32,367 nucleotides of DNA from an uncultured Candidatus Saccharibacteria bacterium (GCA_964361795.1 CAYIBZ010000004.1:1-32367); one strand, 5' to 3'. Positions 407-32,367 are shown, counted from the first letter of the stretch. Notes: generated by a model not told the origin, from the letters alone. Numbers and translations: made by a program.

Positions 407-1114
407 ATGAAGCTGGCTGTTTTGTGGATCCTTTGCTTAATCGGGTGCTCAACCGCCCAGCCTAAAACTCTTCAAGAAATTTACAAAGAAGCCGATTATT
501 CAGTTGACATTACGATAACACATGAGACTTTTGATGGACAAATATTAGAAGGAGGAGGAGCGGGATTTGTGATCGTGCATGACAACCAGCACTATATTTT
601 GACTGTCGCTCACCTAAAATTGATTCCCGATAATTCAAAAGAAATTAAAAAAATACTGGGAATTTTTAAGTCTTCACATCATCCGAATCCGGAAGAACTG
701 GAAGTTGTTGGGTATGACGAAGACGCGGACATCATGACGTTAAAAGCTAAGGATGATTCGTTTATTTTCAAAGGCAATGCCGCAAAACTTGGTTCGTCTA
801 AAAGTTTGCGGGTTGGCGACTCCGTTATCGCCTTGGGATCTCCTTTAAATTTTCGGTTTTGTTTGAGCGAAGGCGTTGTCATGCGGCTCAATGCGCCATC
901 CAGCAATTTCAGGAACAATACTGCTTATTTTATTTTACATAGCGCGTTAATTAATCCCGGAAGCTCCGGCGGCCCGCTTCTAAATAACTTCGGTGAAGTT
1001 ATTGGGATTAATACTATGGTAGTCACCCGGAAAATGACAGGCGTTACGGCTATGTCGCTGGCCATTCCAATTGACGACGTTAAAAAAATTCTCCCGAAAA
1101 TAATTGGACAATAG
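407..1114 (+). CDS. Trypsin-like (S1C/HtrA-type) serine protease lipoprotein without PDZ domain
   Basis: Catalytic motifs LTVAH (His), DADI (Asp) and INPGSSGGPL (Ser). It also has the HtrA-like segments GDSVIALGSP and GEVIGINT, and an N-terminal hydrophobic stretch with lipobox LIGC. Confidence 0.9.
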   Translation: MKLAVLWILCLIGCSTAQPKTLQEIYKEADYSVDITITHETFDGQILEGGGAGFVIVHDNQHYILTVAHLKLIPDNSKEIKKILGIFKSSHHPNPEELEVVGYDEDADIMTLKAKDDSFIFKGNAAKLGSSKSLRVGDSVIALGSPLNFRFCLSEGVVMRLNAPSSNFRNNTAYFILHSALINPGSSGGPLLNNFGEVIGINTMVVTRKMTGVTAMSLAIPIDDVKKILPKIIGQ

Positions 1115-28799: not shown

Positions 28800-31377
28800 G
28801 CCATTTTCCGATTTCAATCGCGATTAAATTAACAAGGCCAAAACCAATGACGCCAATCAGCCATGACAGCGGCAAACTGACGGTGCTTAGCAATGATTGC
28901 GCGGGCTCCCAATAAATAGTTCCCATTATTGAACCTAAACCCGCCAAAACTCCGATTAAAAGCACCGGATTGGAAAAAAAATTATAGCCGATAATAGGCT
29001 TGCGCAAACTCCGGACTGAAAAAATCAAAAATAAAGAATAGCTCCCAAAAGAGGCAAAAATAAAAGTTTTCACTAAAGCGGCGTCAAATCCCAAACTTAA
29101 AAGATAATAATACAGCAAAAATAAGAATAAACTGCTGGGAAGGCCGACCACAAAAGTCAGAAAAGCCATTTCTTTGTCAAAAAGATTGCGGGAAATTTTT
29201 CTTTTAGGCCGCGCGAGATAATCTATATGATCCTCAAACGCCAAAGAAACAGCGGGAAAACTGTCAGCGATAAAATTTACAAAAAGTATTTGCAGAGCGT
29301 TAAGAGGCAAAGCGATTCCAATTAACAGCGCGCCGCCAATCAGGAAAAGCTCGCTAAAAATGGACGAAAAAAGATAGACAATTACCTTTCTAATATTTTC
29401 AATGATGCGCCTGCCTTCTTCTATGGCGGAGACAATGGTGGAAAAATTGTCATCCAGCAAAACCAGATCGGAAACGTCTTTGGCGACATCGGTCCCAGAA
29501 CCCATCGCTATGCCAATATCCGCTTGCTTCAAACTGCCGGCGTCATTAATGCCGTCGCCGGTCATCGCGATTGTTTCGCCCAATGACTGAAAAGTTTTAG
29601 CAATTCTTAATTTTCCCTCGGGACTGACTCTGGACACAATCCGCAGAAAAGGAAGTTTTTTCTTTAATTCTTCATCGGATAATAAATCCAGCTCAAAACC
29701 GTCAATAACTTCATCGCGATCAATGTGCATCCCTAATTCTTTCGCGACAGCTTCCGCCGTTCCTTTGTGGTCTCCGGTAACAATAACCGTTTTGACGCCG
29801 GCGCGTTCAACCGTGGCTAACGCTTCTTTGACTCCTTGCCGAATCGGGTCCCTAAAAGAAAATGTTCCTAAAAATTTTAAATTTTCAAAAGTGCTTTTAT
29901 GTCTCAAGGAGACTCCGTCAATCGCGGTTAATTCTCTAACCGCCAATCCTAGAACCCGCTCTCCGCTGTACGCCATCTTATCAACTTCCCTGACCAACTG
30001 ATGCCGTTCTTCTTCTTTTAAATTAGAAAGTTTGATTAAAATTTCCGGAGCGCCCAAGACATTCAGCAAATAGCGCTCTCCGGTTTTTATAATTGAGGCG
30101 GAAAATTTGTTTTTAGAAGTAAAGGGCAAAAAATCAATTTGTTCGGACTCTTTTTTAATGCCATGAAAAGAAATCCCTTCGCGAGCCGCTTCTTTAGCGA
30201 TGGCGATTTCCAAAGGACGGCCGATAATCCGCCATTTGTCATGCGGGTCCCGGGGATTTTCTATGACAACATCCGTGTTGAACAAAGCGTTTTTCAAAAT
30301 TTCGGCTCGGCTGAATTCTTCCGTGAAAACCGATATTTCTGACAGCGTCATTTTGGCTTCAGTAAGAGTTCCGGTCTTGTCCGTTAAAATAATGGAAGTA
30401 TTGCCAAGCGTCTCGGCGGCTATCAGTTTTCTAACCACGCCGTTTCTCTTCGCTAATCGCTGTACGCCAATAGCTAAAATAACCGTCATAGCAACCGGCA
30501 GTCCTTCGGGAACGGCCGACACCGCCACTGCCACCGCGATTAAAAACATGTCTAGAATCGGATGGCCTAAATATATTCCAAAGAAAAATATCGCCGCCGT
30601 TAAAATAGTAAGAAAAATGCTGACCTTCAAGCTAAAATTAAAAATTGAGCGCTGAAGAGGCGTGGTTTCTTTTTCGGCGGCCGCGACAAAACCGGCTATT
30701 TTACCGAGCTCCGTATCGGATCCGGTAGCGCAAACAACGGCATTGGCAAATCCCTGAATAATTGAGGTGCCGCTAAAAACCATTGACCGGCGATCCGCCA
30801 AAACGGCTTTAAAGCTTGACGGTTCGGTGGTTTTAATAACCGGAAGGGATTCGCCTGTTAAAATAGATTCGTCCACAAAAAAGTCATTGATATAAATCAA
30901 CCGGCTATCTGCCGGAACCCGATCGCCTTGAGAAAGATGAACAATATCTCCCGGAACTAAGTCAGCCGATTCTAACTCTATCTCTTGGCCGTTGCGCAAA
31001 ACTCTGGTTCTTTCAACGATATAAGTTTTCAAGTTGGCTAAAGCGGCTTCGGCTTTGTTTTCTTGGTAAAAACCCAAAATAACATTCACGGCCACCGCCG
31101 CAAGAATCGCGATAGTATCGCGATAATCTTCCAGAAATAAGGTGATGCCGCTCGCCGCCAATAAAAGCAATAAGAGCGGGCTTTTGAATTGCCTTAGGAA
31201 AATTTTTAAGCCGGTGGATCCTTTGCTTTTCGGCAAGATATTTTTGTTAAAAACTTGGCGTCTGGCTTCCACTTCGTCGTCCGCGAGCCCAAATTTAGTC
31301 GTTTCCAAGGCATCCAAAACTTCTCTTATCGGCAGAGCCCAGAAAGATCTGCGTAAAATGTCTTTTGTAAGCTGCAT
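28768..31377 (-). CDS. P-type cation-transporting ATPase (type II, Ca2+-pump-like)
   Basis: DES.LTGES, VPEGL, DKTGTLT, TGDH, MTGDGIND, multiple TM helices. Confidence 0.95.
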   Translation of the reverse strand: MQLTKDILRRSFWALPIREVLDALETTKFGLADDEVEARRQVFNKNILPKSKGSTGLKIFLRQFKSPLLLLLLAASGITLFLEDYRDTIAILAAVAVNVILGFYQENKAEAALANLKTYIVERTRVLRNGQEIELESADLVPGDIVHLSQGDRVPADSRLIYINDFFVDESILTGESLPVIKTTEPSSFKAVLADRRSMVFSGTSIIQGFANAVVCATGSDTELGKIAGFVAAAEKETTPLQRSIFNFSLKVSIFLTILTAAIFFFGIYLGHPILDMFLIAVAVAVSAVPEGLPVAMTVILAIGVQRLAKRNGVVRKLIAAETLGNTSIILTDKTGTLTEAKMTLSEISVFTEEFSRAEILKNALFNTDVVIENPRDPHDKWRIIGRPLEIAIAKEAAREGISFHGIKKESEQIDFLPFTSKNKFSASIIKTGERYLLNVLGAPEILIKLSNLKEEERHQLVREVDKMAYSGERVLGLAVRELTAIDGVSLRHKSTFENLKFLGTFSFRDPIRQGVKEALATVERAGVKTVIVTGDHKGTAEAVAKELGMHIDRDEVIDGFELDLLSDEELKKKLPFLRIVSRVSPEGKLRIAKTFQSLGETIAMTGDGINDAGSLKQADIGIAMGSGTDVAKDVSDLVLLDDNFSTIVSAIEEGRRIIENIRKVIVYLFSSIFSELFLIGGALLIGIALPLNALQILFVNFIADSFPAVSLAFEDHIDYLARPKRKISRNLFDKEMAFLTFVVGLPSSLFLFLLYYYLLSLGFDAALVKTFIFASFGSYSLFLIFSVRSLRKPIIGYNFFSNPVLLIGVLAGLGSIMGTIYWEPAQSLLSTVSLPLSWLIGVIGFGLVNLIAIEIGKWLIRPLPPPIQ

Positions 31378-31399
31378 TGTCTTCTCATTATTATAAGAT

Positions 31400-31427
31400 A
31401 AACCCCGCCGATATTCATCGGGGGGTT
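31400..31427 (-). terminator. Probable terminator after the metalloprotease gene
   Basis: Minus strand: AACCCCCCGAT-loop-ATCGGCGGGGTT followed by a short T-run. Confidence 0.55.
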
Positions 31428-31429
31428 GT

Positions 31430-32101
31430 TTATCTTATCGGCATCAAGCCTTTTTCTGCGAATTTGATGTAATCAGATAGAGTAATAAATCCGAAATCGC
31501 GTAAAAGTTCTAATTTATCCCAGTACCGAAGGTCTGAAGTTTTAATTTTTGAAAAGGCGGATTGGCGACAAACGATTTCATCAACGAGGCGCAGGGACGC
31601 GTAAAATTCTTCAACTGTTTCCGCTATATCTTCAAAATAGCTTTGACTGCCATATTTAGTTAAAACACCGTCGCGGGGATAGGATTCGGCGGGATAATTT
31701 TTATGATAAACGTTGCCGGCAAGTCTTTGCCATAAATAAAAAAAATGGCTGCCTCTCATTTTAAGATAATTGGAATAAGCGTGAGCGGCTTCGTGCCACA
31801 GCGAGGAGGAAGCAACCACGCTGGATTGAAAACAAAGTTTTCCGCAAAGAAAATGGCAATGCCCAACAACGGAAGTGTTTTCGTAGTGGCTTACGTCGTT
31901 ATTGACAGTGATAGAAGCAATGCTCTGAACGACATTTTCCGGCAATACTATTAAAAGTTTATCTAAAATCTCTACCTGCTTTTCGGTAAAATTCCCATAA
32001 AGCGGTATGTTGTATTCCGACTTCAGCGGCGATCGTGGAATGCCAGTACAGTTAGTTAAGCAAAGGATGAAAAGAACTGCGGCTCTCCATCGCTTGGCCA
32101 T
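31430..32101 (-). CDS. Zincin metallopeptidase lipoprotein (HEXXH + downstream E)
   Basis: HEAAH and YGSQSYFEDIAE (third-ligand motif), lipobox LTNC, AGGA SD before ATG 32101, promoter TTGCCA-17-TACAAT (32160..32132). Confidence 0.8.
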   Translation of the reverse strand: MAKRWRAAVLFILCLTNCTGIPRSPLKSEYNIPLYGNFTEKQVEILDKLLIVLPENVVQSIASITVNNDVSHYENTSVVGHCHFLCGKLCFQSSVVASSSLWHEAAHAYSNYLKMRGSHFFYLWQRLAGNVYHKNYPAESYPRDGVLTKYGSQSYFEDIAETVEEFYASLRLVDEIVCRQSAFSKIKTSDLRYWDKLELLRDFGFITLSDYIKFAEKGLMPIR

Positions 32102-32144
32102 GCGCGCTTCCTGTTTTAAAAGAACGATGTCATTGTACCTCAAA

Positions 32145-32173
32145 TTGACGGTTTTGGCAACGGGAGTTAATAT
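32145..32173 (+). promoter_or_regulatory. Sigma70 promoter in front of the interrupted tRNA-Ser
   Basis: TTGACG-17-TAATAT, 16 nt upstream of the tRNA 5' end; divergent from and overlapping the metalloprotease promoter. Confidence 0.7.
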
Positions 32174-32189
32174 CTTGGCAGAGCGTCTT

Positions 32190-32278
32190 GGAAGGGTGGC
32201 CGAATGGTTTTCCCGCTTTCAGCGGGATCCCGCAATCATTTATAGTTTATTAAATGTGCGGGAAAGGCGACGGTCTTG
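32190..32278 (+). tRNA. 5' half of tRNA-Ser (probably UGA) with a 53-nt insertion in the D-loop, broken off within the anticodon
   Basis: Removing 32211-32263 gives GGAAGGG TG GCC GAATGGTTTAA GGC G ACGGT CT TG, a canonical class II tRNA-Ser 5' half. The expected A-AA-ACCGT continuation is absent from the window. Confidence 0.8.
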
Positions 32279-32288
32279 CCCCGCCTGA

Positions 32289-32367
32289 ACATTTGTATCT
32301 AAATTAAAGAAGTTTGAAAATAAGATTGCGGCTCGCAAACGAGAATTACAAATAAAATCTTATAAGA
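32289..32367 (+). pseudogene. C-terminal remnant of a GIY-YIG endonuclease (runs off the window)
   Basis: Frame reads TFVSKLKKFENKIAARKRELQIKSYK, matching the GIY-YIG helix motif F..K..A.KRE.QIKSYK. It is preceded by an in-frame TGA and has no start codon or GIY/YIG motifs. Confidence 0.65.

Follow-up and report, generated by a model that had tools for sequence, protein, structure and literature searches.

How does a tRNA-Ser gene come to stop in the middle of its anticodon and give way to the tail of a nuclease? We have analyzed such a case in the genome of an uncultured Candidatus Saccharibacteria bacterium (G000, 678,620 bases in 49 contigs), starting from a stretch of 32,367 nucleotides that corresponds to positions 1-32367 of contig C4 (hereafter, the window). 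The explanation that we consider very probable is that positions 32190-32278 are the orphaned front (nucleotides 1 to 35) of the resident tRNA-Ser(UGA) gene, split by a cassette of hairpin, nuclease gene and tRNA that has since decayed. The anatomy of the locus, the homologies of its parts, their contiguity in the DNA and the recurrence of the same design elsewhere are direct observations of the analysis, and are described below.

The end of the window contains the following elements:

32145..32173, plus strand: promoter-like site of the resident tRNA-Ser (TTGACG, a 17-nt spacer and TAATAT, 9/12 matches; 1646-1674 in L001)
32190..32210, plus strand: orphan tRNA-Ser(UGA), nucleotides 1-21 (acceptor 5' strand, D-stem and start of the D-loop), 20/21 identical to the intact tRNA at C4 32567-32587
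32211..32263, plus strand: complete double-hairpin module inside the D-loop, about 53-54 nt, found by sequence reading and folding
32211-32227, plus strand: hairpin A of this module, stem of 6 bp and loop of 5 nt
32228-32263, plus strand: hairpin B of this module, stem of 7 bp and AT-rich loop of 22 nt
32264..32278, plus strand: continuation of the orphan tRNA fragment (D-stem 3' strand, anticodon stem 5' strand, C32 U33 U34 G35), 15/15 identical to the intact tRNA
32279..32310, plus strand: truncated second hairpin module at anticodon position 35|36, with its left arm CCCCGCC and an AT-rich loop, the right arm being absent
32306..32367, plus strand: first part of a GIY-YIG nuclease stump, with homology from about codon 49; the remainder lies past the end of the window

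The promoter-like site is located 16 nt before the tRNA fragment, as the original prediction, made from the sequence alone, had recognized; on the minus strand, a second, divergent one overlaps the same positions. The two tRNA pieces are collinear on the same strand, and the match to tRNA-Ser(UGA) breaks off exactly between G35 and A36, with CCCCGCC coming next, which is precisely the break that had been described. The fragment had been taken for a canonical tRNA-Ser 5' half. It does represent nucleotides 1-35 of tRNA-Ser(UGA), but it is not canonical, because a 54-nt double hairpin that had been overlooked splits its D-loop. At the anticodon junction itself there is a GC-rich hairpin module, and the nuclease stump begins some 27 nt further on. 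That tRNA scanners would miss the locus proved right: ARAGORN detected no tRNA in the window, and a search of positions 31000-32367 against Rfam gave no tRNA and no intron, only noise (mir-318, UCA1).

Two other features of this region deserve mention. The AT-rich loops (22-26 nt) of the larger hairpins, at 32235-32256 and 32286-32310 of the window and also in loci L078 and L071 of relatives, hold hexamers resembling a -10 box, e.g. TATAGT, TATATT or TAAAAT, shortly upstream of the nuclease start codon. By their sequence, these might be candidate promoters for the nuclease gene. Besides, an open reading frame of 237 residues (31430-32143, minus strand) diverges from the tRNA promoter region and has a promoter-like site of its own. 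No homolog of it was found beside tRNA-Ser in the relatives examined.

Past the window, positions 32368-32522 of C4 consist of 100 N followed by a second exact copy of the last 55 nt of the window. The same exact overlap of 55 nt between flanks was found at 14 of the 33 gaps (100 N) of the assembly, and the apparent repeat is therefore an artefact of the assembler; for this reason a true tandem repeat was ruled out. Beyond the gap the following elements were found:

C4 32523-32560, plus strand: rest of the nuclease stump, with its stop codon TAG at 32561-32563
C4 32552-32566 and C4 32654-32668: left and right arms of a 15-bp inverted repeat, which brings the acceptor stem to 22-23 bp
C4 32567-32654, plus strand: intact tRNA-Ser(UGA), detected by ARAGORN
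C4 32694-32721: terminator-like hairpin 3' of the intact tRNA, detected by a scan

With the gap closed, the intact tRNA-Ser(UGA) starts 133 real nt past the break. The original prediction had pointed to the sequence past the window end as decisive, and what appears there is another GGAAGGGTGGCC start: instead of a 3' half alone, the contig holds a second tRNA-Ser(UGA) in full. The closing GGCGGGG arm that was also expected turned out to be deleted. A check for another tRNA-Ser(UGA) in the genome had been suggested as well; the intact downstream gene is the sole one among the 35 tRNAs detected (the genome is 92% complete). No resident tRNA 3' half was found downstream of it, a piece that is present in the related loci L079, L078 and L071.

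From the old promoter up to the intact tRNA, the scan revealed no further promoter-like site. The left arm of the inverted repeat overlaps the final codons of the nuclease, and in the predicted fold of a read-through transcript the tRNA keeps a normal cloverleaf, standing on a helix of 22-23 bp. The intact tRNAs at C1, C9 and C7 of the same genome, and those of L037 and L071, are likewise enclosed by extended helices. Transcription of the intact tRNA probably starts at the old promoter and reads through the relic, the tRNA then being excised from the extended-helix precursor. For annotation, the locus illustrates how a promoter can be parted from its tRNA by a relic.

The nuclease part of the locus is only a remnant. 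The peptide ...FENKIAARKRELQIKSYK... was confirmed, in a frame of 39 codons that opens after the TGA at 32286-32288 and runs to the TAG located four nt before the intact tRNA, and its N-terminal part is absent. It comprises the last ~33 codons of a GIY-YIG nuclease of ~80 residues, joined directly to the hairpin loop. The idea that it is the C-terminal helix of a GIY-YIG endonuclease without its N-terminus stands by homology and not by domain search, since the 31-residue stump gave no match to PF01541 (E <= 10) or to NCBIfam. According to the original prediction, the lack of such a match together with the lack of any tRNA 3' half or second copy downstream would speak against it; the stump has no match, and the second tRNA copy is present. 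Residues 52-80 of the paralog on contig C5 are identical to the stump at 18/29 positions (62%, E = 3e-10, ungapped, BLASTP) and residues 52-79 of the L078 protein at 23/28 (82%, E = 5e-15, BLASTP). The C5 protein (80 residues) is itself positive for PF01541, and L078 (79 residues) was recruited with the C5 protein as query. This pairwise homology to full-length proteins places the stump in the GIY-YIG superfamily. A58, E62 and K66, invariant columns in the alignment of paralogs that include the Glu of the C-terminal helix, are retained, and the GIY motif, the YIG motif and the conserved Arg are all absent. With its catalytic half missing, the stump is a pseudogene that cannot encode an active enzyme. 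Among solved structures, the nearest are those of single-domain UPF0213 proteins (1zg2, E = 9e-5).

Intact versions of this arrangement are found in relatives. In L079 (UGA), L078 (CGA) and L071 (GGA) the 5' part of a resident tRNA-Ser stops at position 35. Next come a double hairpin, A36 plus a few tRNA bases, the nuclease gene with its start codon and an intact tRNA, and behind the latter the same hairpin module again and the resident 3' half. Two loci of the family, L030 and L031, have tRNA-Ser fragments that likewise end in ...CTTG. When the cases with the insertion at the anticodon were read by eye, the break was at 35|36 in 6/7 and at 34|35 in L080. Double hairpins were located directly upstream of the ORF in C5, L058, L070-L072, L078-L080 and L097, and several loci have them downstream too. 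As read from these sequences, the intact design is a resident tRNA, a double hairpin placed either at 35|36 of the anticodon or within the D-loop, the nuclease gene and a replacement tRNA.

The decay of the locus can be mapped against these intact cassettes. The D-loop insert aligns end to end with the anticodon double hairpin of L071 (score 46, against 13.3 +/- 2.6 for shuffled sequences, 0/2000), and the 34 nt after the break align with the L078 hairpin over its left arm and loop (score 31, shuffles 12.5 +/- 2.5, 0/2000). Both inserts thus align as members of the module family of the relatives. A global alignment between the L078 cassette (402 nt) and the locus (228 nt) contained a single gap of ~175-190 nt. 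To the left of it the two are homologous up to the loop, and to the right homology resumes at codon 49 and extends past the stop codon into the tRNA. The alignment indicates that the locus has lost about 175-190 bp between the first hairpin's loop and about codon 49, and with them the catalytic half of the nuclease. On the same alignment CCCCGCC is the surviving arm of a hairpin whose closing arm was deleted together with the front of the nuclease. In L078, AAAGA(A) is found at both edges of the gap, and a microhomology deletion therefore fits, with L078 serving as proxy for the sequence that was lost. When the stump plus tRNA was used as query in a DNA search of the 21 genomes of the family, the tRNA part alone matched.

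We have also checked whether the same design is found elsewhere in G000. The genome has nine matches to PF01541, and all 6 full-length paralogs match this domain with E values from 1.7e-14 to 3e-17. Two full-length small GIY-YIG genes, on C5 and C9, are directly upstream and on the same strand of tRNA-Ser(GCU) and tRNA-Asp respectively, and on C1 a weak PF01541 remnant is directly upstream of tRNA-Lys. Another weak match overlaps tRNA-Pro and is probably due to chance, and one is within an open frame of 426 residues, probably UvrC. Four small GIY-YIG genes are not directly upstream of a same-strand tRNA and are flanked by inverted repeats of 13-19 bp; in the case of C14, tRNA-Gly is encoded on the opposite strand at a distance of 268 nt. 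The pairs on C5, C9 and C1 are accompanied, upstream and/or downstream, by partial copies of their own tRNA that carry GC-rich hairpin inserts. Actually, a BLAST of the 35 tRNAs against the genome indicated that partial copies adjoin at least 8 of them, and some of these loci have no nuclease gene, e.g. tRNA-Thr(GGU). For generic GC-rich hairpins near tRNAs the enrichment was weak (27/582 clusters versus 3.2% expected, p = 0.035), under a crude definition that includes terminators; the count missed the hairpins of the window itself, which fall beyond its 300-nt limit through the artefactual gap. We do not count this enrichment in favour of the cassette.

Some of these loci have peculiarities of their own. 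On the minus strand of C39 (4380-4620) an intact tRNA-Thr(GGU) is nested in an older tRNA-Thr with a different acceptor and T-arm. There, a GC-rich double hairpin comes after the D-loop of the older tRNA, no nuclease gene is present, and further tRNA 3' fragments are located upstream. On C9 (100-630, minus strand), pieces of a ghost tRNA-Asp are on both sides of the nuclease-tRNA pair and have in common a direct repeat of 34 nt. This repeat includes a 7-bp hairpin with the loop GTCC that replaces the anticodon arm, and the nuclease frame extends 22 nt into the intact tRNA-Asp. The small GIY-YIG genes at C3 15600-15890, C14 6980-7290, C2 74880-75300 and C33 5940-6280 are inside perfect inverted repeats of 13-19 bp. 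Several of these four contain CCGTTAGA / TCTAACGG; the final codons lie within the right arm, so that the gene appears lodged in the middle of a palindrome.

A different conserved element, of ~150-190 nt, was found after tRNA-Ser(GCU) and tRNA-Trp (C5 ~844-1050, minus strand, and C47 ~1810-2000), and also in L016, L022 and L056. Close to its start there are a terminator-like hairpin and an inverted T-loop-like GGATTCGAAC. Paired AACCCCGA/TCGGGGTT stretches are found inside it, and at its end the last ~19 nt of the tRNA are repeated, which gives it the look of an insertion into the T-loop of a ghost tRNA. For the ~190-nt element 3' of tRNA-Ser(gct) on C5, Rfam gave nothing above noise. A palindrome of ~20 nt with a CTGCCTGCCGGCAGGCAG core is located after GCAGAC in the D-arm of a ghost tRNA-Leu in L067 (genome G014) and L042 (G016). 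The same palindrome appears again in L056 (G002), inside a conserved element, 3' of an unidentified tRNA-like sequence.

At a wider scale, the 21 genomes of the family contain ~100 matches to PF01541. Among the best small GIY-YIG loci of the family, 8/29 have a same-strand tRNA at a distance of ~100 nt or less (downstream of the gene in 3 and upstream in 5) and 21/29 have none. In the class, the C5 protein found matches in 194 of the 301 genomes sampled. In 17 of the 28 usable best loci, the start of a tRNA lies at -38 to +82 nt relative to the stop codon; the other 11 have no such tRNA. The full-length relatives have 79-99 residues, and the GIY-YIG domain spans nearly the whole protein. Thirteen proteins of the class share the C-terminal motif of the stump, ...IKSYKxGEAFKKL..., and 11/13 precede a tRNA-Ser or a tRNA-Tyr (of the remaining two, one is at a contig end and the other has no tRNA). 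The loci of this subfamily are mutually related, and therefore these counts are not independent events. As a separate observation, the 35-nt double hairpin of C5 (1403-1437) is identical in L072, from a genome (G240) that belongs to a different family of the class, while the nucleases of the two are 58% identical. An identity of this kind would imply either very strong constraint on the module or its independent movement.

Is there evidence that tRNAs have been replaced in this way? The tRNA-Ser(UGA)-folA-thyA order is syntenic in L031, L032, L034 and L037, all of them without a GIY-YIG gene (tblastn, E < 1e-3), in what is a presence/absence comparison of the same site at the family level. At least four sequence types of tRNA-Ser(UGA) were found in the family. 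In G019, the upstream fragment is closer to the family-typical type (22-23/27) than to the adjacent intact tRNA (18/27). Within the genus g6, three genomes have one type, and G009 has another, behind which a 3' fragment of the first is still present. Such a pattern suggests that tRNA-Ser has been replaced repeatedly within the family. At the window locus, the fragment and the intact tRNA are of the same sequence type, and therefore there is no sign here that the intact copy came from outside. Given this single type and the absence of a resident 3' half, the history of the window copy would be read by analogy with the relatives.

These last two features, a fragment nearly identical to the intact tRNA and a missing resident 3' half, are also what would be left by a local tandem duplication of the tRNA-Ser 5' half, accompanied by unrelated insertions of palindromes and by the chance decay of a nearby GIY-YIG gene, with no targeting of tRNAs involved. 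We consider this improbable, although it is the best surviving alternative. Against it, other tRNAs, as well as other genomes, have the parts in the same order and are broken at an identical nucleotide (35|36), the nuclease subfamily tracks the identity of the tRNA, and in relatives the fragment and the intact tRNA do differ in sequence type.

A second possibility is that the assembly had joined a fragment from one organism to the stump and tRNA of another through a shared 55-mer. The scaffold break does fall on a 55-mer that is a conserved coding stretch. We have examined the gap in the contigs of four public runs (X1-X4), obtained with an assembler different from that of this assembly. One contig each in X1, X2 and X3 (2413, 1767 and 1583 nt), runs that are a possible source of this assembly, bridges the gap skipping exactly 155 nt, with zero mismatches on the left piece and 121-185 nt on the shorter side. 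In X4, no contig was found across the gap and the contigs end at the edge of the 55-mer; a second variant could be present in that sample. Besides, the window fragment matches the downstream tRNA better than the tRNA of any relative. A chimera is thus very unlikely, and the fragment and the intact tRNA are contiguous in the DNA. The same collapse of 155 nt probably closes the 14 overlapping gaps as it does at C4, so that, for annotation, the 100-N gaps with 55-nt overlaps of this assembly could simply be closed.

Partial tRNA copies beside an intact tRNA are the usual signature of integrase-type islands, and one such copy is indeed present here. However, only 133 nt separate the two copies, with no room for an island and no integrase gene there. 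The duplicated part is the 5' half of the tRNA and not its 3' end, no 3' fragment is found downstream, and the intervening DNA is a hairpin module with a GIY-YIG stump. The chance that the locus is the attachment-site scar of an island that used the tRNA-Ser gene is slighter still, and we have discarded this reading, as well as a split or permuted tRNA, ruled out by the presence of the complete tRNA.

Group I introns of bacterial tRNA genes are located in the anticodon loop, and a homing endonuclease may be encoded in them. The interruption here falls in that loop too, but a single tRNA interrupted by a group I or other intron that is removed after transcription, one of the two readings originally offered, has practically no chance of being correct because a complete tRNA follows with no 3' exon, Rfam finds no intron, the last 5' base is G35 (where, as the original prediction had pointed out, group I introns require a U) and the intervening DNA is a truncated hairpin module plus a truncated protein gene.

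The other reading originally offered, a mobile element associated with a GIY-YIG nuclease, is supported by the complete second tRNA downstream and by the recurrence of the arrangement in the genome, the family and the class. Under this explanation, a miniature selfish cassette formed by a GC-rich double hairpin, a GIY-YIG gene of ~80 codons and a complete replacement tRNA-Ser(UGA) would have split the resident gene at G35/A36. The nuclease may cut the DNA of tRNA genes at the cloverleaf loops, possibly when single-stranded, as Ssn nucleases do at hairpins, and repair after the cleavage would copy the cassette in. The tRNA carried by the cassette would compensate for the essential gene destroyed, and the hairpin inserts would both inactivate the old copy and protect it from further attack. 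For this specific sequence of cleavage, repair copying, compensation and target loss we infer somewhat less than an even chance, and we propose it tentatively. A more general proposal, held with slightly greater reserve, is that there is a large undescribed family of such cassettes that recognize D, anticodon or T loops (probably as single-stranded DNA), with nuclease subfamilies adapted to particular tRNA classes (here the long-arm Ser/Tyr). These might drive the repeated horizontal replacement of essential tRNAs in ultra-small bacteria, and the locus described here would represent invasion, fixation and decay of the nuclease by microhomology.

If true, essential single-copy tRNA genes would be the regular target of a very small parasite that repays its host with a spare tRNA. 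The tRNA debris scattered over these reduced genomes, which scanners miss or miscall, would then be accounted for, and so would the tRNA sequence types that do not track the phylogeny of the organisms. The nucleases of ~80 residues may read the structure of the DNA at defined nucleotides of tRNA genes, which would make them of interest as possible site-specific single-stranded DNA nucleases. In the literature, supplementary files aside, we came across no account of nuclease cassettes that interrupt tRNA genes of bacteria and bring a spare tRNA along. New here are the presence of two hairpin modules in one fragment and the mapping of the decay deletion, together with the nuclease subfamily linked to Ser/Tyr tRNAs and the apparent repeated replacement of tRNA-Ser in one family.

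There are prior examples that resemble parts of this situation. SegB of phage T4 is a larger protein than those found here, with a DNA-binding part. It has been described as a free-standing GIY-YIG homing endonuclease encoded in a tRNA gene cluster; by cutting a related genome in its tRNA gene region, it favours the inheritance of its own (PMC2330249). Both cases share a free-standing GIY-YIG gene among tRNA genes and a nuclease that travels with them. However, SegB is a phage protein, whereas here we find single domains of ~80 residues in cellular genomes, in cassettes that carry hairpin modules, split the resident tRNA in its loops and leave ghost fragments.

The Ssn family (SsnA of Neisseria meningitidis; cd10448) is formed by single-domain GIY-YIG proteins of ~94 residues whose genes are associated with short hairpin-forming repeats; their hairpin-gene-hairpin arrangement was compared to insertion sequences by the authors (PMC11893778). 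Their cleavage is specific for single-stranded DNA bearing the hairpin and tolerates extensions of the loop, and SsnA is described as a modulator of natural transformation; neither tRNA nor Patescibacteria are mentioned in that paper (PMC11893778). The relatives found here are likewise single domains of 79-99 residues, with hairpin modules adjoining the gene. The likeness is one of size and hairpin layout; SsnA, as far as that description goes, is presented in the context of transformation and not as a parasite of tRNA genes.

Within the same bacterial radiation, inserts that encode GIY-YIG proteins and resemble neither group I nor group II introns have been found in the rRNA genes of CPR bacteria, most of these inserts being located at the top or the base of stem-loops (PMC11270868). 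Its authors describe the GIY-YIG inserts as sparse and regard them as outside spread by homing, and tRNA is not mentioned (PMC11270868). Again in this case GIY-YIG genes are found inside structural-RNA genes, in inserts unlike introns, but that description is limited to rRNA, with neither a replacement gene copy nor a hairpin module in the text at hand. With the group I introns of tRNA genes, the locus has in common an interruption within the anticodon loop; it differs from them in that there is no ribozyme core, the 5' base is G, there is no 3' exon, and function is kept by a second complete tRNA and not by splicing. The cassette is, in this comparison, a variant on two known themes, the free-standing homing endonuclease genes and the hairpin-associated nucleases of the Ssn type.
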